From: a virus
Virus genome (UHGV): UHGV-0348126
Reading direction: 5' to 3' (one strand)
DNA length: 35,770 bases
A model generated the notes under the pieces. That model searched no databases. It was not told the origin of the DNA and worked only from the letters and a program-made list of their open reading frames with translations. The position numbers were made by a program, and so were the translations under genes. Below are positions 3,533 through 35,770 of this stretch, in pieces (within the stretch, counting starts at the first letter, position 1; every line of letters begins with the position of its first letter).

Positions 3533-4857
3533 TGCACTGGCACCTTTAGAGGGATCACCGGCACAAAGCCGGGATGCGTAATGGCATTACGCCGGATAAT
3601 GTCCGCGTCACGCGCCGCGTTATCAAACCAGGTCGCCGCCAGCACCAGCGCGGGTAAAACCTCATCCGGCGTGCGCTGAATGATCCGTGCAGACTGTTCA
3701 AGGCGCGTGTTGATATCCGCATTCAGATCTGCTTTCACCCGGCGCAGCGCCAGAAACAGCGCATCACTGGTTGTACGGGACAACTCCTTATCAATTGCCG
3801 TATTCAGTGTGTCGCGAATGTCAGTCAGTTCTTCCCACGTCGGCAGGTCAACTGTGTTTTTCACCGCCGGTGCATTGTTCAGTGCCGGATGCGTGACGGA
3901 AGGCCAGCCAGTGCTCTGCGCAGGTGTTGTTGCCTGCCCCACTGCGGAATTCTGCATCACCGCGGAAGTTGTTGGCGCAGGCAATCGGGTGACGGCATAC
4001 GCCGCTTCGCTGATTGCGGTCGTACGAAGGGTGCTGGCAACCACGTTACGCTGCTGCGTCGCCGTGGCGGTGGTTTTACTGTCCGTTTTCCAGACGCCGC
4101 GCGGTTGCAGATCGCTGCCGAGGCTGACACCGGAAAGCGTTTTGATCATGGTGACCAGGTCGCTGGCGTTACCATAAAGGCGTTTCCCGGTACGCCACAT
4201 TTTCTGCACCTGCTCAACGAAATTTTTGCCTGACGATGGCGGCGGCAGAAGTACCGAGATATCCCCCTGCAACAGCCTGGCGGCATCCGATACGGCAGAA
4301 TCCACCACTTTCATCGCATCAGAAACATACCCCAGCATTATGCTGGCATTACCGATAACGTCGTTCTGCACGAAATCCGCCACACCATCGATACTGAAAC
4401 CGCTGAAGCTGTCACTGATGCAGTCATCCAGTGCAGAACAGGATGACATCAGCGTCTGCGCCGTCGCCGCACCTGATGTGGGGTAAGAGAGTTCTCCTGC
4501 TTCGACAAACTTCAGGTCAAAGCGGACAATACGCCCTTCACTTTTCGATGTGCTGACCCGAACTTCCCCGTCAACACAGACTTTCAGCTCACCATATGTC
4601 GGGTGGACAAGCGTGCCGGGACCGGGTTTATTCAGCGCTTCAATCAGGCGATCGCGCTGGTCAAAGCAGTCATCTCCCACCACATAAGCTGTGATGGACG
4701 GGCGGAAAGTGACTTTTCCCAGATCTTCGGTATAGGGCTTGTCGCGGTTCGGATATTCGTGTGTTTCCACACGGCGACCGGTTCCCGCACTTTCTTCTTC
4801 AACCTTAAACGGTACGCCGCGAAATGACGCATCCTGAAGCCTGTCTTTCCACGTCAT
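3529..4857 (-). CDS. DNA circulation protein (Mu N / gp43-like)
   Basis: 442-aa ORF; N-terminus MTWKDRLQDASFRGVPFKVEEESAGTGRRVETHEYPNRDKPYTEDLGK recalled as typical of the DNA circulation N-terminal domain. Confidence 0.8.
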   Translation of the reverse strand: MTWKDRLQDASFRGVPFKVEEESAGTGRRVETHEYPNRDKPYTEDLGKVTFRPSITAYVVGDDCFDQRDRLIEALNKPGPGTLVHPTYGELKVCVDGEVRVSTSKSEGRIVRFDLKFVEAGELSYPTSGAATAQTLMSSCSALDDCISDSFSGFSIDGVADFVQNDVIGNASIMLGYVSDAMKVVDSAVSDAARLLQGDISVLLPPPSSGKNFVEQVQKMWRTGKRLYGNASDLVTMIKTLSGVSLGSDLQPRGVWKTDSKTTATATQQRNVVASTLRTTAISEAAYAVTRLPAPTTSAVMQNSAVGQATTPAQSTGWPSVTHPALNNAPAVKNTVDLPTWEELTDIRDTLNTAIDKELSRTTSDALFLALRRVKADLNADINTRLEQSARIIQRTPDEVLPALVLAATWFDNAARDADIIRRNAITHPGFVPVIPLKVPVQ

Positions 4858-4870
4858 ATAAACTCCGGAT

Positions 4871-4928
4871 ACAAAAAACCCGCCAAATCTGCTTTGTCAG
4901 TTATTTACATCGCAGAAGATGTGGCGGG
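4871..4928 (-). terminator. putative intrinsic terminator downstream of the AT-rich cargo gene
   Basis: On the minus strand CCCGCCACATCT ... AGATTTGGCGGG forms a long imperfect stem (1 mismatch) followed by TTTTTTGT; lies between the cargo gene stop (4948) and the next tail gene start (4857). Confidence 0.45.
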
Positions 4929-4947
4929 AACCTAATATTTTTAATTA

Positions 4948-5460
4948 CTATCTGAGTTGAACATCAATGGAATAAATATCACCACTCTTTATAAATTTAG
5001 AATCTGTCCTTTCATCAAAAGATTCAAATGACTGTACCTTTAAAAACTTTTTCATTTTATTTTCAAAAATACTTTCATTAACACCAGTTAAATACTTGAA
5101 CGCTCTACCAGCAAGGACCTCATTACTTAAATCCATTGTGTTTTTATTGTCTTTGAAAAACCAAACAATAACCTTTTGTGGGCATGATGGATTATAAACA
5201 GATATATAAAACTGCGGCTCATATTTTTCATCAGCGTCATCACTAAGCATTTCTTCAGAAGATAATTCTCTTCTGAATTCATATTGCCGCTTAGTTATTC
5301 CTTCATCCTTTATTATCTCTTGCTTAACTGGCGCAATACCTATAGAAGAGATTAATTCTGACTCATTAAAGCTGAACTTACACTCTTCCGCAGCCAAGTT
5401 AAAAGATAAAAGTGCAGATATAAAAAAAACAAAGATACGCATAATCATCCCTTCAATCAT
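4948..5460 (-). CDS. hypothetical secreted protein (moron) with N-terminal signal peptide
   Basis: 170-aa ORF in a visibly AT-rich island. Three in-frame ATGs (5460, 5448, 5442); GAAGGG lies 6 nt before the ATG at 5442, giving MRIFVFFISALLSFNLAAEE..., a classic signal peptide with an LAA cleavage motif. No recognisable family. Confidence 0.6.
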   Translation of the reverse strand: MIEGMIMRIFVFFISALLSFNLAAEECKFSFNESELISSIGIAPVKQEIIKDEGITKRQYEFRRELSSEEMLSDDADEKYEPQFYISVYNPSCPQKVIVWFFKDNKNTMDLSNEVLAGRAFKYLTGVNESIFENKMKKFLKVQSFESFDERTDSKFIKSGDIYSIDVQLR

Positions 5461-5541
5461 TTGTAAGGAATGATTATATTAACTACTTAAAGCTGAAAAC
5501 CCAAATTATGCCAGACAAAAACACATTAATCATTTTGTACA
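5461..5541 (-). promoter_or_regulatory. putative autonomous promoter of the cargo gene
   Basis: Minus strand carries a perfect TATAAT (plus 5473..5478) about 13 nt upstream of the first ATG, in an AT-rich 81-bp spacer between the tape measure stop and the cargo gene; the -35 is weak. Confidence 0.35.
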
Positions 5542-7374
5542 CTACCTGAACCGCGTATAGCCAACATCATGGCTGACATCAAAACCGCTGGATCGCGTTT
5601 CCATAACCCGCATACCCGGAGGCGAATTCACAAAAGATACCTTGATCTCACCATCAACTTTTGGCACAGAAGCTTTGTTAATCATGAAGGGATTCGAGCC
5701 TGTGGCATCGGAGGCGTTGTTTGACTGAGCCGGATCCACCGCCGGATAAGGTGTGTATCCCCGCGCCGGTATTCCCGTCCCATAAGCATCATAAGCACCC
5801 GCGCCCCACTGCGCAGAGTTAATGGCATCGACCGTGTCACCGGAACTGTCGGTAAACCACTCAATAATTGGCTTCAGCTTGTCCCACATATCCTGAAACC
5901 ACTTAACAACCGGCCCCCAGTTATTGATCACCATCCCCAGCGGCGACCAGGCAAAAACTTTCTTAAGGAGTTCCCAGCCAGCCTCAAAATAAGGACCAAT
6001 GGTTTCCCAGAGTTTCTTAAAATAAGGTCCGACAACATCCCAGTTAGTGATAATTAATCCCGCAGCCAGGGCTATCGCCGTCGCAATCATGCCAATCGGC
6101 GTCATCGACATGATCCTGCTGACAATACTGATGGCACCGCCAACGCCCATCAATCCCAGTTTCAGAATCGCAAGACCAGCAGCAAGCCCGACGACGCCGC
6201 GAATAACCCGGGGATTTTCATCCGCAAACTTCGTGAATTTCTCCCCCAACTCCCCCAGCCATTGCGTGATATTTTTAGCGTCACCAGAAAATGCGCCGCC
6301 AATAGCCGCAAGGCCGTTAGTTGCGGTCCCTGTCATTGCCTCCCACAGGTTGGACAGCGTACCAAGCTGTGCCTGAACACGTTTATTCAGGCTGGCCTGT
6401 TTATTCATCTTCTGCTGGATCTGATCGTAGCCATCCTTTCCTTTATCGATTAGTGCATTGACCACCTGAAGGGTTTCGGCATCATCACCAAATATTGCCT
6501 TAAGTACACCAGTTCGTTTAACGTCGGTCAGTTTTCGCAGCTTTGCCAGTTGCCTGAACATGTTATCAAGACCGCCAAAACTCCCTTTGCCGTCAGTAAA
6601 ATCGAGCTGTACCCCGAGTTTCTGGCGGGCCATAACTTTATTAACATCCCTGATTTTCTTAACGCTTAATCCGGACTGGATAACTTTTCGCAGGGCATTA
6701 CCTGCCGACTCCCCGTTCATCCCCATCTGATCCATCATGACGCTGATGGGGGCAAGGCTATGTGCAGCCTGAAGACCGTCCTTGTTCACCATCTTCAGAA
6801 CAGAACTGGTTTTAGTGAAGAAGGACAACATGTTGGTATCGTCAACGCCCAGATAAAACGCCTTCTGGATAGTGTCGAACAGCCCCATCATGTCTTCTGA
6901 CGCCGTTCCGGTAGCATCCTGCATCTTTGCAGCAAACTCAGCAGCCGCTTCCGGTGTTTTTTTCAGTTGTACCGCAAGATAAGCTGTCGCTTTACCCACA
7001 CCGCCAAGAATGTTTTCTGCCGGGATCCCCTGACGCACCAGCATCTGCATCATGTTCTGGAAATCAGCCGTTGTACCGGGTAGCTGGTTACCCAGGCCAA
7101 TAGCCAGTTTATTGATGTCCTGAAAGCTCTTTCCAACCTCGCCGTTCGCATCCATCATGGCGACTTTCAGCCCGGTGGCGGCGTTTTCCTGATCGGCATA
7201 AGATTTCAGGGAAAGCGTCAGACCCGCTGCCAGTCCGCCACCAAGCGCCAGCCCACCCTGTGACGCTTCTTCCGCCTGGCGTTTAAATCCCCGGATTTTC
7301 TTTTGCATTTTCGACAGCGCGGGAGAAAGCCTGTCGACACCGGTGATCAACGCCTTAAGCTCAAATTCAGCCAT
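5542..7374 (-). CDS. tail tape measure protein
   Basis: 610-aa ORF following the tail chaperone; Ala/Gly-rich with hydrophobic segments (GVVGLAAGLAILKLGLMGVGGAISIV) and a Trp-rich repeat region (WDVVGPYFKKLWETIGPYFEAGWELLKKVF) typical of tape measure proteins. Confidence 0.85.
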   Translation of the reverse strand: MAEFELKALITGVDRLSPALSKMQKKIRGFKRQAEEASQGGLALGGGLAAGLTLSLKSYADQENAATGLKVAMMDANGEVGKSFQDINKLAIGLGNQLPGTTADFQNMMQMLVRQGIPAENILGGVGKATAYLAVQLKKTPEAAAEFAAKMQDATGTASEDMMGLFDTIQKAFYLGVDDTNMLSFFTKTSSVLKMVNKDGLQAAHSLAPISVMMDQMGMNGESAGNALRKVIQSGLSVKKIRDVNKVMARQKLGVQLDFTDGKGSFGGLDNMFRQLAKLRKLTDVKRTGVLKAIFGDDAETLQVVNALIDKGKDGYDQIQQKMNKQASLNKRVQAQLGTLSNLWEAMTGTATNGLAAIGGAFSGDAKNITQWLGELGEKFTKFADENPRVIRGVVGLAAGLAILKLGLMGVGGAISIVSRIMSMTPIGMIATAIALAAGLIITNWDVVGPYFKKLWETIGPYFEAGWELLKKVFAWSPLGMVINNWGPVVKWFQDMWDKLKPIIEWFTDSSGDTVDAINSAQWGAGAYDAYGTGIPARGYTPYPAVDPAQSNNASDATGSNPFMINKASVPKVDGEIKVSFVNSPPGMRVMETRSSGFDVSHDVGYTRFR

Positions 7375-17453: not shown

Positions 17454-17804
17454 TCACTTCAACCATTCACGGGCCGTCTTCGCCTTATGACACGGCCAGC
17501 ACAGACTCTGCAGATTACAGTCGGCATCAGTGCCGCCATGCGCTTTAGGGATGATGTGGTCAACAGTTTTCGCCTCACGCACCACACCAGCACGCAGACA
17601 TAGCTGACACAGGCCTTTGTCACGCTTCAGGACACGCACGCGGATAACATCCCACTTCGAACCATAACCGCGCTGATGACGAGATTGTCCTGGCTTGTAT
17701 TGCTTCCAGCCTTCGCTTTTGTGGCTTTCGCAATAGCCTGACGGGTCAGTCGTGGTATGGCGGCAGCCGCGAACGCGGCAGGCTTTTGGGGTTCGTGGAG
17801 GCAT
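17454..17804 (-). CDS. HNH endonuclease (terminase-associated)
   Basis: 116-aa ORF with Cys-rich HNH motif DHIIPKAHGGTDADCNLQSLCWPCHKAKT; immediately upstream of terminase genes. Confidence 0.85.
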   Translation of the reverse strand: MPPRTPKACRVRGCRHTTTDPSGYCESHKSEGWKQYKPGQSRHQRGYGSKWDVIRVRVLKRDKGLCQLCLRAGVVREAKTVDHIIPKAHGGTDADCNLQSLCWPCHKAKTAREWLK

Positions 17805-17931
17805 CTATTATCCCTGTAGTTTTCGTTAAATATCTAACCATAACTGCAATCAGAAACCGCTTTAACACGGTTTGTTAAATAGACTTTTCAATCCAATGAA
17901 TAAACGGCAAGTAAATACCAATCGTTCATTT

Positions 17932-18378
17932 TCATTTGAATACAAACTGTTCTGAAAGAATATTATGACAAATATATTTCGCCTGAATACTATTATCTCT
18001 CATTCTAATATATTCTTTGTGGGCAACAGATAAAGAACGACAACCGCTGTTTACACGTGGGTATTTTTCCAACATATGTTCGCATATCAAAAAAGCATTA
18101 TTAACAGCATTTAATTTATGATTTAACTCTCGTAGCTCGGCCCTTTTTTCAATACGAACATTACGACTAAGAGATAAAGGTAGTTGTGATAATGCATTTG
18201 AATAATCAGCCACTGCCATTTTCAGAGCCATTTTGGCCTTCAGAGCCTCCTGTCGCCGCCAAACATTCATTGCCCAAAAACCTAATGTAACAGTTACAAT
18301 TGAACCTAAAGCCGATACAGCTGACCACACAGTTCCCCAAGGCCAGTTAAGTAATGTATGCCACATAATAACCTCCAC
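17932..18378 (-). CDS. hypothetical membrane-anchored protein (AT-rich moron)
   Basis: 148-aa ORF in a visibly AT-rich island between the lysis cassette and HNH; N-terminal hydrophobic helix WPWGTVWSAVSALGSIVTVTLGFWAMNVW followed by a charged helical region; no family recognised. Confidence 0.55.
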   Translation of the reverse strand: MEVIMWHTLLNWPWGTVWSAVSALGSIVTVTLGFWAMNVWRRQEALKAKMALKMAVADYSNALSQLPLSLSRNVRIEKRAELRELNHKLNAVNNAFLICEHMLEKYPRVNSGCRSLSVAHKEYIRMRDNSIQAKYICHNILSEQFVFK

Positions 18379-18734
18379 TGAATGAAAAGGTTAGTTTATC
18401 GCAAGTGAACATCACTGGCACTATCTAAAGATTAGCTGCTCTACTAGTTGTACTCTCGATAATCTACACAAAATGATACGTAATAAACCTGTTCATGACT
18501 AGCTCTACTAGACACATGTTTAATCATCGACAAACGATTTGTATAAACTTCCACTTTCATATTGATCCAAAAGGTTGGCCTAATAGTTAATCACGATGCA
18601 TATTTTATGCAAGCTGCTACATTACGCTATAAAAACGCTAGCATCTGAACTTAAAGCCATAGATTTTATAAAATTACCATAATACACAACTTTATTATGA
18701 GCATTCGCAACGATAATGAAAAATATAACTCGAG

Positions 18735-19007
18735 CTATTTGTCTTTCGAATGCAAAATAGCGCGCCGTGATTCAATATTTCTGATTCCAGTTTTATCAAA
18801 ATTACATTGTCCCAAGGCTGACAATAGAGCAACATTCAACTCCAGACTGGTACCATACGTCAGCGGATTGGGTATAAACGGTACTGGAGTATCAGAAGTC
18901 AGGCTGGCTGGCAGCGGTGCCACCGGATCGCTCACGTAAACCGTCCGCGTACTTCCGCAACCGGTCAGCAGCGGCAGCAGGCACAGGACGTGAAGCACAA
19001 TCATCAT
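18735..19007 (-). CDS. Rz1-like outer-membrane spanin lipoprotein (overlaps Rz in another frame)
   Basis: ORF frame 18735..19073 contains MMIVLHVLCLLPLLTGCGS (lipobox LTGC) followed by a Pro-rich sequence; starts inside Rz and runs past its stop. Confidence 0.5.
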   Translation of the reverse strand: MMIVLHVLCLLPLLTGCGSTRTVYVSDPVAPLPASLTSDTPVPFIPNPLTYGTSLELNVALLSALGQCNFDKTGIRNIESRRAILHSKDK

Positions 19008-19284
19008 CCGCAACAGCCACTTTGATATCTTCCTGGGTTCTCTGTGACTCCAGTGCGATCTGCTGTTTTGCATGTTGATTCGCCTCCTGAATGATGTTCG
19101 TTATTGCCATAGTACGCAGAACATTCGCGGTGATAGCCTCAGTAGAATCAGCTCGCTGTTCCGCAGCATCAGCACGCTTCTGCTCCTCCAGAAACTTTCC
19201 ATGATAGTGATTCGCTGACCAGACAAGACCACCAGCGACACAAGCAATAAACGTTAAAATGAGCGCCCAATAACTCATCTTCAT
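18892..19284 (-). CDS. Rz-like inner-membrane spanin
   Basis: 130-aa ORF with N-terminal transmembrane segment (YWALILTFIACVAGGLVW) and charged helical periplasmic domain; directly after the endolysin gene with 4-nt overlap. Confidence 0.7.
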   Translation of the reverse strand: MKMSYWALILTFIACVAGGLVWSANHYHGKFLEEQKRADAAEQRADSTEAITANVLRTMAITNIIQEANQHAKQQIALESQRTQEDIKVAVADDDCASRPVPAAAADRLRKYADGLRERSGGTAASQPDF

Positions 19285-33258: not shown

Positions 33259-33540
33259 AATGTATTAGCTTAGATGTGAGCTGACACATCTATGCTTAGA
33301 TGCCAAACCTAATCTGAGCGTCCACTCTTTACCAAGAGCGGACGTTACCAATGACCATATGACATGAATCGATAAGATCAAAACATTATCGCCAAGAAAT
33401 GTCATACCATTGATACAAATAAAATTGATTACCCCCTTACTCTTGTTGAAAAGTTAGTCGTAGAGTACCTATCGCAATGTAATCAGCTTTAATCATCTGA
33501 AAATTACTCCTTAAAAATTAGCTTTTATATACTGAACAAA

Positions 33541-34260
33541 TTAAATCTCTGTTTCTTTTCCTGCTCGGCTCAACCAATACTCCATTGTTTGAGTATGAAT
33601 CTTTTCAGCGTATATTTTATCAATTAATTTATCTTGTTTTTCTTTAATGACTTCACGCAGTGAATCATATAACATAAAAAAACGTTCATCATCTTCCTCA
33701 TTATTACCGTAATTTATTTGATTGAGTTCTGAAAAAATATGATAGTACCTTTTTTTCTTGGTCCCCGGCAATATTAAAACCAAGCCACATTGATCATATT
33801 CGAATTCACCTTTATGGGCAGCAAAGTTATGTCTAACATTCATAATAGAGTCATGTAAATCTCTGTATTTTTCTGGCACATGCTTTCTCTGCAATGTGAA
33901 TCGACGCCCTTTCGCCTCTGTAAAACACTTACCGTAAGTAACAACTTTTGATATAAACAAAGACTTTAATATTAGATTCTTTTCTAAATCCGGATAAATA
34001 AAGTGTTGTTCTTTATTAATGTTATTACAAATGTTTTTTATTATATTCTCCCAACCAATAACATTCCGAAGATCTTTATCAAGCAACTGTAAGGCCACAT
34101 ATTGTTCTACAAAACGGCCTTTTAAAGGTATTCGTGGTAATATTACACCTTTCTGCTTATAAATTCTTTCTATCGTATTATCTGGATATTGGATCTTCCT
34201 TATTTCTATTCCGTCTTCTTCTGATACCCTTACTAATGGTTCATTTTTTAACTTTGACAT
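33541..34260 (-). CDS. hypothetical cytoplasmic protein in AT-rich cargo island (candidate defence / abortive infection gene)
   Basis: 239-aa ORF, visibly AT-rich codon usage unlike flanking phage genes, flanked by AT-rich intergenic regions; no transmembrane segment; contains RHNFAAH (R-x5-H); no family recognised. Confidence 0.55.
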   Translation of the reverse strand: MSKLKNEPLVRVSEEDGIEIRKIQYPDNTIERIYKQKGVILPRIPLKGRFVEQYVALQLLDKDLRNVIGWENIIKNICNNINKEQHFIYPDLEKNLILKSLFISKVVTYGKCFTEAKGRRFTLQRKHVPEKYRDLHDSIMNVRHNFAAHKGEFEYDQCGLVLILPGTKKKRYYHIFSELNQINYGNNEEDDERFFMLYDSLREVIKEKQDKLIDKIYAEKIHTQTMEYWLSRAGKETEI

Positions 34261-34546
34261 GTTAACCCTCTTAAATAAAAAACTAACTTTATCCAGATAG
34301 TGTCCGTTAAGAAGTTTTCGTTACAACTAAGTTTCTAGGTAAATCATGAATCGACCTATAGTATCAAAAACATTTGGTGGTAAACATCTGCATTTATCAA
34401 ATGGCAGGAGCGATTTAGGGGCATAGGGATAGTGATGATATCGATACCCGCCCCCCTCTTATGTCAACACAATGGCGTAAACTTAACGCTCACATCTCGC
34501 TCAAAGTGTGCTAGGAGATTTGGTTATGTTCAGGTGATACAAACCG

Positions 34547-35770
34547 TCAGTTTGAATCAGATATAGTACAATTAACAATCGATTCAACCCTCTTCCACCA
34601 TGCCAGGTAAGCTTTACGCTGTTCTTCTAGATAATCGCTCTTATCATAAACTTGCCATACCCCTGGCAGCTTATGACCAAGCATAATTTCTGCGATATGA
34701 GGCGCAGTAAGATCAGAAAAATTTGTTCGAGCTGTACGTCTCAAGTCATGAAGAGACCAATGAGGGAATTGATATCCTAAACGCCGCCATGCGTACTGCA
34801 TTAAATTGTAAGGCAGCGACTGCAATGATGTCCGACCAACGGGTTCCCTGCTTCCTTCCTTAGTAAAAAGCATATCTGAACCATTGTTCATAGAGATAGC
34901 GTACTTTATAAGCTCTTCAACCGGTTCAATAATCGGCCGCTTTAGCGGTTCGCCTGTTATCTCCCCAGTCTTATGTCGTTCTGGTGGTACAGTCCATACT
35001 TTATTAATGAAATCAAAATCGTCCACCCGGGCGGTAATAAGCTCTGAACTACGGCAACCAAAATGCAGCAATAGTTTAATGAAGGCCCGGTATTTAGGAA
35101 CCATTCGAGAACCATCGATCGCAGCATAAAGGATTTTAATTTCATCATGTGTCAGAAACCGTTTCTTCTGACCTTTACGGATATCCATATCTTTACCCGT
35201 GATATCCGACAGCGGGCGAGTTTCAATGAGCTTTCTCTTATACGCCCAGACATGGGCCTGCTTTGCGTTAATTAGCAATCGGTCTGCTATTGCTGGAGTC
35301 TTAGTGCTAAGAGGCTCCAGGACTTCTAACCAATCATGCAATGTAGCTGCATCGTGAGGGATATTCCCGATTTTAGAGAACAGGTGCAGCTCAAACGAGC
35401 GGAGTATCTGTTCAGAACCTTTTTTATTTTTTACACAATATGCTTCATACCAAGCACGGATCACAGACTCTACCGTCATGGCTTCAGTAGCTTTTCGTTT
35501 TTCAGCCTGCTTGACCAATCGTGGATTACGGTTTGACTCGAGTTCACCACGAAGACGGATAACTTCTTCTCTGGCCTCTTTTAATCCAGTTGCCGGGTAA
35601 GTTCCGATATCAAGACGCTCACCTTTCCCTGCCCATTGATAACGATATTGGAACACTACGCGACCTTTCGGTGATACTCTGACAGACAGACCATCACGAT
35701 CGGATTTAACCAAAACCTTATCACGTTCCTTTCCAACGACTGAACGCAACCACGCATCAGACAGCGCCAT
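34547..35770 (-). CDS. tyrosine integrase, P4-type (N-terminal DUF4102-like arm-binding domain)
   Basis: 407-aa ORF; N-terminus MALSDAWLRSVVGKERDKVLVKSDRDGLSVRVSPKGRVVFQYRYQWAGKGERLDIGTYPATGLKEAREE; catalytic region HDLRRTARTN...LGHKLPGVWQVYDKSDY; start codon is the last 3 nt of the window. Confidence 0.9.
   Translation of the reverse strand: MALSDAWLRSVVGKERDKVLVKSDRDGLSVRVSPKGRVVFQYRYQWAGKGERLDIGTYPATGLKEAREEVIRLRGELESNRNPRLVKQAEKRKATEAMTVESVIRAWYEAYCVKNKKGSEQILRSFELHLFSKIGNIPHDAATLHDWLEVLEPLSTKTPAIADRLLINAKQAHVWAYKRKLIETRPLSDITGKDMDIRKGQKKRFLTHDEIKILYAAIDGSRMVPKYRAFIKLLLHFGCRSSELITARVDDFDFINKVWTVPPERHKTGEITGEPLKRPIIEPVEELIKYAISMNNGSDMLFTKEGSREPVGRTSLQSLPYNLMQYAWRRLGYQFPHWSLHDLRRTARTNFSDLTAPHIAEIMLGHKLPGVWQVYDKSDYLEEQRKAYLAWWKRVESIVNCTISDSN

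Follow-up and report, generated by a model that had tools for sequence, protein, structure and literature searches.

The closest described system to the gene considered here is HepS (STM14_3211) of the Salmonella prophage Gifsy-1, a solo HEPN anticodon nuclease that acts by abortive infection (Abi) without a partner (Sargen et al., Nature 2026, PMC13043305). HepS is constitutively expressed yet inert until a tail-tip protein activates it, and it then cleaves tRNA anticodon loops (PMC13043305). A second point of reference is AbiU2, the HEPN domain modelled as HEPN_AbiU2 (PF18734) and represented by AbiU of Lactococcus (Anantharaman et al. 2013, PMC3710099); a Vibrio mimicus integron cassette with a HEPN AbiU2 domain has been reported to protect against T4 and T7 (bioRxiv 10.64898/2026.03.17.712381). 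Here we examine a cargo gene of the virus genome UHGV-0348126, analysed as one stretch of 35,770 nucleotides (the window), which is that of a temperate phage resembling CPS-53/KpLE1 and carries yfdN, yfdP, yfdQ, yfdR and DUF551 genes. An initial annotation, made from the letters alone, had described a lone 239-amino-acid open reading frame (ORF) on the minus strand between a putative excisionase gene and the integrase gene, and the gene exists as described (Table 1). We read its product as a stand-alone HEPN-type abortive-infection or superinfection-immunity nuclease of a new family, which would work like HepS without being detectably related to it, and on the analysis as a whole we put the probability of this reading at about 0.5. 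Prophage-borne solo HEPN Abi proteins, the kind predicted here, are already known; what would be new is that the family is a distinct one, that it has beta elements in addition and that its range of carriers is unusually broad.

The family is undescribed, having no name, no Pfam, NCBIfam or PADLOC model and no paper that we could find. The ORF product is identical to RefSeq WP_000040218.1 and UniProt A0A0B1N468, and against Pfam, NCBIfam and PDB sequences it gave no significant match. Its sole named match, full-length and with E = 1.4e-142, is PHROG 8440, a group of unknown function of which the protein is a member; the first description of it as belonging to no recognised family thus holds. 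A word-indexed search with the single sequence recovered 25 enterobacterial clusters, and profile searches reached Vibrio, Photobacterium, Psychromonas, Alteromonadaceae, Pantoea, Kluyvera, Legionella and Pseudomonas. Three word-indexed searches (single sequence, broad profile and divergent-subclade profile), aimed at bridging to a named family, returned no match with a Pfam domain or a name. An exhaustive profile search found, at E <= 1e-3, 925 representatives clustered at 50% identity; for 398 of them E was <= 1e-10. All are labelled "hypothetical", and among the best 150 of the 925 almost all are 220-260 amino acids long and match end to end.

DNA-level comparisons of family members gave ratios of nonsynonymous to synonymous substitution (dN/dS) of 0.09-0.25, and the gene is under purifying selection. 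The G+C content (GC) of the family is 0.31-0.38 regardless of host. A profile search of 185,579 species-representative genomes matched a single one, and 23 IMG/VR viral contigs carry the gene. One viral copy (IMG/VR UViG 2896595138_000007, L030:1510-2226) is a pseudogene: frameshifts take its catalytic core, residues ~75-165, out of the reading frame, and the allele has thus been inactivated in nature.

The HEPN assignment turns on the string R143-H-N-F-A-A-H149, in which the initial annotation had seen an R-x5-H motif of HEPN type that it judged weak evidence on its own. That caution was well placed. An Rx4-6H string is present in 74% of shuffles of the ORF protein, so that RHNFAAH is meaningless alone and draws its significance only from its invariance across the family. 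Over 177 full-length members, reaching down to ~20% identity, R143 is found in all 177 and H149 in 176, and the residue after the arginine is histidine in 108, asparagine in 66 and aspartate in 3. Since the definition of the HEPN core includes a polar N, D or H after the motif arginine (PMC3710099), what is kept family-wide here is both the Rx4-6H spacing and the polar residue that goes with it. The same alignment has further near-invariant positions: Y109 and R119 in 177/177, D63 and H136 in 176/177, lysine (165) or arginine (12) at position 111, F113 in 172, G151 in 173 and A148 in 171.

The position of the motif in the predicted structure is that of a HEPN active site. AlphaFold2 (AF2), run on the family alignment, gave a model of the ORF protein with a mean predicted local distance difference test score (pLDDT) of 87.1 and a predicted template modelling score (pTM) of 0.76. 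In this model, three N-terminal strands (9-36) are followed by a helix (49-79), a second helix (92-111), a loop (112-129) that bears R119, a third helix (130-148) with R143...H149 at its C-terminal end, a beta-hairpin (157-180) and a long helix (188-221). A second model, of the divergent-subclade member P0123 (pLDDT 91.5, pTM 0.82), has the same order of elements, with the equivalent motif, R133...H139, at the end of helix 120-137. Both models thus have the HEPN helix layout, with the motif closing the third of four helices in an up-down bundle, and the four features that define the HEPN core (PMC3710099) each have a counterpart here. The fold is predicted to be a helical bundle like that of HEPN proteins, to which beta elements are added; to call it unknown, as was done at first, was too strong.

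Profile comparisons point in the same direction, toward AbiU2. In a Pfam scan of 68 members, HEPN_AbiU2 was the only family matched by more than two of them (4/68, best E 0.036), and it was the top match for two of three subclade consensus sequences (best E = 0.0014), the alignment spanning helix 2 through the R..AH-G motif. The ORF protein itself does not match HEPN_AbiU2, and no family member has a precomputed PF18734 match. Comparison by hhalign of the family profile with single DUF4145 and DUF3644/EC042_2821 proteins gave probabilities of 0.4-1.2%, a test that is uninformative for single-sequence targets. Taken together, the motif, the models and these matches make membership of the HEPN superfamily probable, while at the level of sequence the protein is not assignable to AbiU2 or to HepS.

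The relatives travel on a wide range of elements. In Enterobacter, Yersinia and Citrobacter (39-42% identity), the gene is the last gene of P2-like prophages, where it overlaps or directly follows int and lies downstream of the repressor gene; the int-att interval of P2-like prophages has been reported as a minor defence hotspot (NAR 2026, PMC13586616). A Cronobacter relative with 86% identity is found in a lambdoid prophage, at its opposite end, where it follows tail-fibre and umuDC-like genes. There (L039-L041:6984-7055), a 23-amino-acid fragment of the UmuC C-terminus (DUF4113) comes right after the homolog and a full umuC-like gene right before it, an arrangement that suggests that the cassette went into the 3' end of umuC or duplicated it. 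In Vibrio cyclitrophicus the gene is cargo of a filamentous phage (Tubulavirales), and in Vibrio alginolyticus it forms a one-gene integron cassette with attC-type repeats on both sides. Two neighbouring cassettes of this array (L050:2932-4495) code for 234 amino acids each, a size similar to that of the family; one has no Pfam match and the other is DUF5677. The Photobacterium relative sits in a similar same-strand cassette array.

Integrative and conjugative elements (ICEs) are further carriers. The gene of Legionella pneumophila is on an ICE of the type IV secretion system kind, beside a type I restriction-modification (R-M) system that contains PDC-S19 (DUF3644), and that of Pseudomonas syringae is also on an ICE. 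In Pseudomonas aeruginosa, the homolog stands in an integrase-bounded island directly between Avs1a/Avs1b and GajA/GajB. The Gabija system at this site (L009:8917-11278) looks degraded, with GajA split into pieces of 323 and 205 amino acids and GajB present as a 194-amino-acid fragment.

At least six kinds of mobile element thus carry the gene as cargo, known defence hotspots and islands among them, and in qualitative terms its neighbourhoods include those of defence genes: Avs1 and Gabija, R-M with PDC-S19, the P2 int-att hotspot and an integron cassette. The initial annotation had proposed that the gene fits the pattern of single-gene defence systems; the placement of the relatives bears this out, but the anti-phage and nuclease activities stay predictions. 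Across the contexts examined, the relatives are always solitary and no neighbour is conserved, from which it follows that the gene works alone. No MNT or other antitoxin gene and no antitoxin RNA repeats were found beside members in these contexts. In the window, the flanks of the ORF gave 0 Rfam matches, 0 tandem repeats and 0 conserved small ORFs; a type III toxin-antitoxin system or a small-RNA partner was considered and rejected on the lack of Rfam matches and tandem repeats in the flanks.

If the protein is a HEPN nuclease of this kind, then it would be one most like AbiU2, extended by an N-terminal beta-meander and by a beta-hairpin inserted after the catalytic motif, and its gene would be a self-sufficient one-gene cargo (a moron) of temperate phages and other mobile elements. 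The lysogen would make the protein either from a promoter that the gene has to itself in the AT-rich spacer or through transcription running on from int; no terminator was found in the stretch from int to the ORF. The gene comes with no antitoxin or partner, and the protein would therefore have to stay inactive in the lysogen. The cue would come from an infecting phage, probably as one of its proteins binding to the beta surface, and would allow two R143...H149 motifs to join into one composite RNase site that needs no metal and cleaves tRNA or some other RNA. With translation halted, the infection would abort, protecting the lysogen population and with it the prophage. The RNase chemistry, the dimerisation, the trigger, the expression in the lysogen and the defence phenotype are each things that we infer.

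Several results weigh against this reading. The best PF18734 score, 18.6 bits, is under the gathering cutoff of 26.8 bits, and the acidic residue usual in HEPN helix 2 (Ex3[KR]) is not evident: the invariant D63 lies instead in the first long helix, within a string [E/D]61-K-D-L-[R/K]65. The family profile matched no PDB sequence even at E <= 10, so that neither HepS, for which structures are deposited, nor any solved HEPN protein is detectably homologous to it; in LT2 Gifsy-1 (NC_010392), no ORF with R100/H105 was found. Foldseek searches of PDB and BFVD gave nothing significant. The ORF protein had 0 matches among the hidden Markov models of PADLOC-DB v2.0.0, and among the 68 members PADLOC gave only scattered single-member matches, each to another model (best E 0.0004). 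Most genomic contexts show just cargo of a mobile element, which would also fit addiction, competition between elements or anti-defence. A sigma-70 consensus scan of the 286-bp spacer on the ORF strand passed 0 sites, so that expression in the lysogen, which the initial annotation took as given, is only presumed, and we found no experiment on any family member in the literature or databases.

The most novel alternative, a rather unlikely one, is that the family comprises new one-gene immune effectors in which the beta-meander and hairpin are a new phage sensor, mounted on a highly derived or non-HEPN catalytic bundle, with a trigger and a target unlike those of the HepS and AbiU2 type. Such a protein, being autonomous, could pass between filamentous phages, ICEs, integron cassettes and tailed prophages, the last of three or more architectures. 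A related explanation, which we hold to be unlikely, keeps the role in defence or abortive infection and gives up the HEPN RNase altogether: the helical bundle, with its invariant D63, Y109, K111, R119, H136, R143 and H149, could be another enzyme, for example a DNA nuclease or one that degrades or modifies nucleotides or NAD, or a sensor that kills in some other way. All HEPN-specific sequence tests stayed under threshold, the fold neighbours are generic bundles, and the invariant Y109, R119 and H136 and the helix-1 acid fall outside the canonical HEPN signature; the defence contexts would suit such an effector just as well. Against a different effector speaks AbiU2 as the sole recurrent profile match.

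Still less likely, in our view, is that the gene serves the mobile elements themselves, as an addiction or post-segregational toxin, as a weapon against competing elements or as an anti-defence protein. HEPN domains are common as the toxins of toxin-antitoxin pairs (PMC3710099), and the relatives on ICEs near regulatory and transfer genes, in a filamentous phage and in integron arrays occupy places where addiction and anti-defence genes accumulate too. However, a lone, constitutively active toxin would be unmaintainable, and no antitoxin-like partner was seen, whether an MNT gene, a conserved small ORF or RNA repeats. The prophage positions, moreover, are att-proximal moron slots rather than early lytic or leading-region ones, and one relative lies directly between Avs1 and Gabija.

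It is quite improbable that the gene is lysogenic-conversion or housekeeping cargo of another sort, without a role in conflict, such as a regulator, an RNA-processing factor or a stress-response protein. The precedent for such cargo is close at hand, since in K-12 CPS-53 this slot is taken up by genes for O-antigen glucosylation and not by a defence system, and the function of the present gene is assigned by inference only. Yet the protein has no membrane, DNA-binding or metabolic domain signatures, its patchy spread (1.3% of complete E. coli, 1/185,579 species representatives) argues against a core function, and occurrence on six element types together with one frameshifted pseudogene is the pattern of a conflict gene. 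That the ORF is spurious, a chance reading frame in AT-rich non-coding DNA annotated only as hypothetical, is refuted by 925 length-matched homologous representatives, dN/dS of 0.09-0.25, confident AF2 models and a strong ribosome-binding site.

In the window, the cargo gene and the signals around it are arranged as listed in Table 1. The ORF protein has no transmembrane or signal features (maximum KD19 1.08, GRAVY -0.65), and its description as cytoplasmic at first reading stands.

Table 1. Features of the cargo gene, its spacers and its neighbours in the window (positions are those of the 35,770-nucleotide stretch).
Feature	Position	Strand	Remarks
Cargo gene, 239-amino-acid ORF, ATG start	33541..34260	-	28.5 kDa, pI 8.9, predicted soluble
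Codons for R143-H-N-F-A-A-H149, putative HEPN Rx4-6H catalytic motif	33814..33834	-	C-terminal end of third long helix
Shine-Dalgarno sequence AAGAGGG	34266..34272	-	5 nt before ATG; read from sequence; strong
Spacer from int stop to ORF start, 286 bp, GC 0.39	34261..34546	-	presumed promoter or read-through region
AT-rich spacer downstream of ORF, 282 bp	33259..33540		ORF and early-left operon converge here
Swapped cargo segment, approximate, ~1.2 kb	33346..34560		no similarity to PhiR63_1 across segment
Putative excisionase, HTH_17-type protein, 64 amino acids	33064..33258	+	last gene of early-left operon
Tyrosine integrase, 407 amino acids	34547..35770	-	upstream of cargo gene, same strand

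The integrase has the domains PF00589 (Phage_integrase), PF13356 (Arm-DNA-bind_3) and PF22022, all above the Pfam cutoffs, and is annotated as an integrase in RefSeq. The window ends, at 35770, on the start codon of the integrase gene, which places the attachment site and the host junction outside it; in an E. coli genome with a perfect match to the island, the prophage is integrated beside yjjG. The early-left operon ends with yfdP/Q/R-DUF551-xis. The excisionase named by the initial annotation as the other neighbour is supported by the RefSeq record of phage 2H10, where an excisionase is listed under the matched stretch, but the match of this ORF to Pfam HTH_17 (22.5 bits) is under the 27-bit cutoff, and the gene can be called an excisionase gene only putatively. 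It is HTH_17/AlpA-like and unrelated to TorI, the recombination directionality factor (RDF) of K-12 CPS-53; a TorI-type RDF was considered for it and rejected for want of any similarity to TorI of CPS-53. The xis, cargo and int genes are contiguous and convergent here, whereas torI and intS lie at opposite ends of the prophage in K-12, so that the integration module is differently organised despite the common yfd genes.

The slot between xis and int is one in which cargo is swapped. In a pairwise alignment with PhiR63_1, xis with ~90 bp beyond it and the 3' end of int are retained and similarity is lost from ~33345 to ~34560; the first ~90 bp of the downstream spacer are backbone common to both phages. 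The equivalent slot of PhiR63_1 (L002:3422-4555, minus strand) holds an AT-rich gene for 377 amino acids, and that of the Stx2c-converting phage PV98-693 (L048:2759-4312, plus strand) an AT-rich gene for 517 amino acids with N-terminal hydrophobic segments. Both sit behind near-identical integrases, and neither product has a Pfam or PADLOC match. In K-12 CPS-53, yfdG/H/I (gtrABS) follow intS on the same strand, in line with the O-antigen modification genes that the initial annotation named for SfV/CPS-53-type elements. The contents of the slot thus differ among PhiR63_1, Stx2c phages and K-12 CPS-53, in agreement with the int-proximal cargo hotspot first proposed, and the xis-int slot of CPS-53-like coliphages is a swap hotspot just downstream of int. 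The 377- and 517-amino-acid genes are further candidate cargo or defence genes, and as cargos of unknown function in this slot they are worth screening.

With its flanks, the gene forms a 1288-bp island, which 71 of 5426 complete E. coli genomes (1.3%) carry; 70 of them cover at least 80% of it. All these copies are chromosomal and annotated "hypothetical protein". IS1 splits the island in two genomes, H38 (CUVET16-321, L049:1713-2410) and H39; that the insertion inactivates the gene was rejected, since in H38, the copy inspected, IS1 lies downstream of an intact ORF. In the same genome, the upstream DUF551 gene is cut short, and the annotation shows no xis-like gene.

The base composition of the locus is as far from that of the phage backbone as the initial annotation had it. 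The GC of the ORF is 0.314, and that of the spacers 0.348 (33259..33540) and 0.392 (34261..34546), against 0.519 in the remaining window (whole-window mean 0.51). Among all 720-bp windows of the sequence, the ORF has z = -3.1, only 0.8% being as low, and the window of lowest GC starts at 33491 and overlaps the ORF. The only other patches with GC below 0.36 are 4731-5731 and 17821-18811. The first contains an ORF for 170 amino acids (4948..5460, minus strand) and the second an ORF for 148 amino acids (17932..18378, minus strand), which has an HNH endonuclease gene (17454..17804) on one side and a LysC/Rz1-like lysis gene (18735..19073) on the other. Both lack a Pfam match, and they may be further morons.

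If the protein is indeed a nuclease of the proposed kind, then its family would be the second independent family of partner-less HEPN-type prophage Abi proteins, after HepS, and one with at least 925 diverse representatives that PADLOC, Pfam and NCBIfam have wholly missed. Its small size and its autonomy, seen in the single integron cassette, would make it an easy system in which to study antitoxin-free silence and the sensing of infection. Compared with the HEPN-MNT toxins (PDB 7ae2) and an integron-cassette HEPN protein (PDB 3jrt), to which it has 8-9% sequence identity, the ORF protein is larger, bears the N-terminal beta-meander and the beta-hairpin insertion, and has no adjacent MNT gene in any member. 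With AbiU2 the family shares its occurrence on mobile and defence loci, and it too has one-gene integron cassettes, although the V. mimicus cassette is likened to it by description only, not by sequence. The motif of HepS is R100-x4-H105, in contrast to R-x5-H at 143-149 in the ORF protein, and the likeness to HepS is one of functional analogy only: each is a single protein of less than 250 amino acids from an accessory locus of a prophage, with an invariant Rx4-6H motif, no partner or antitoxin, and beta-strand elements available for binding a trigger.

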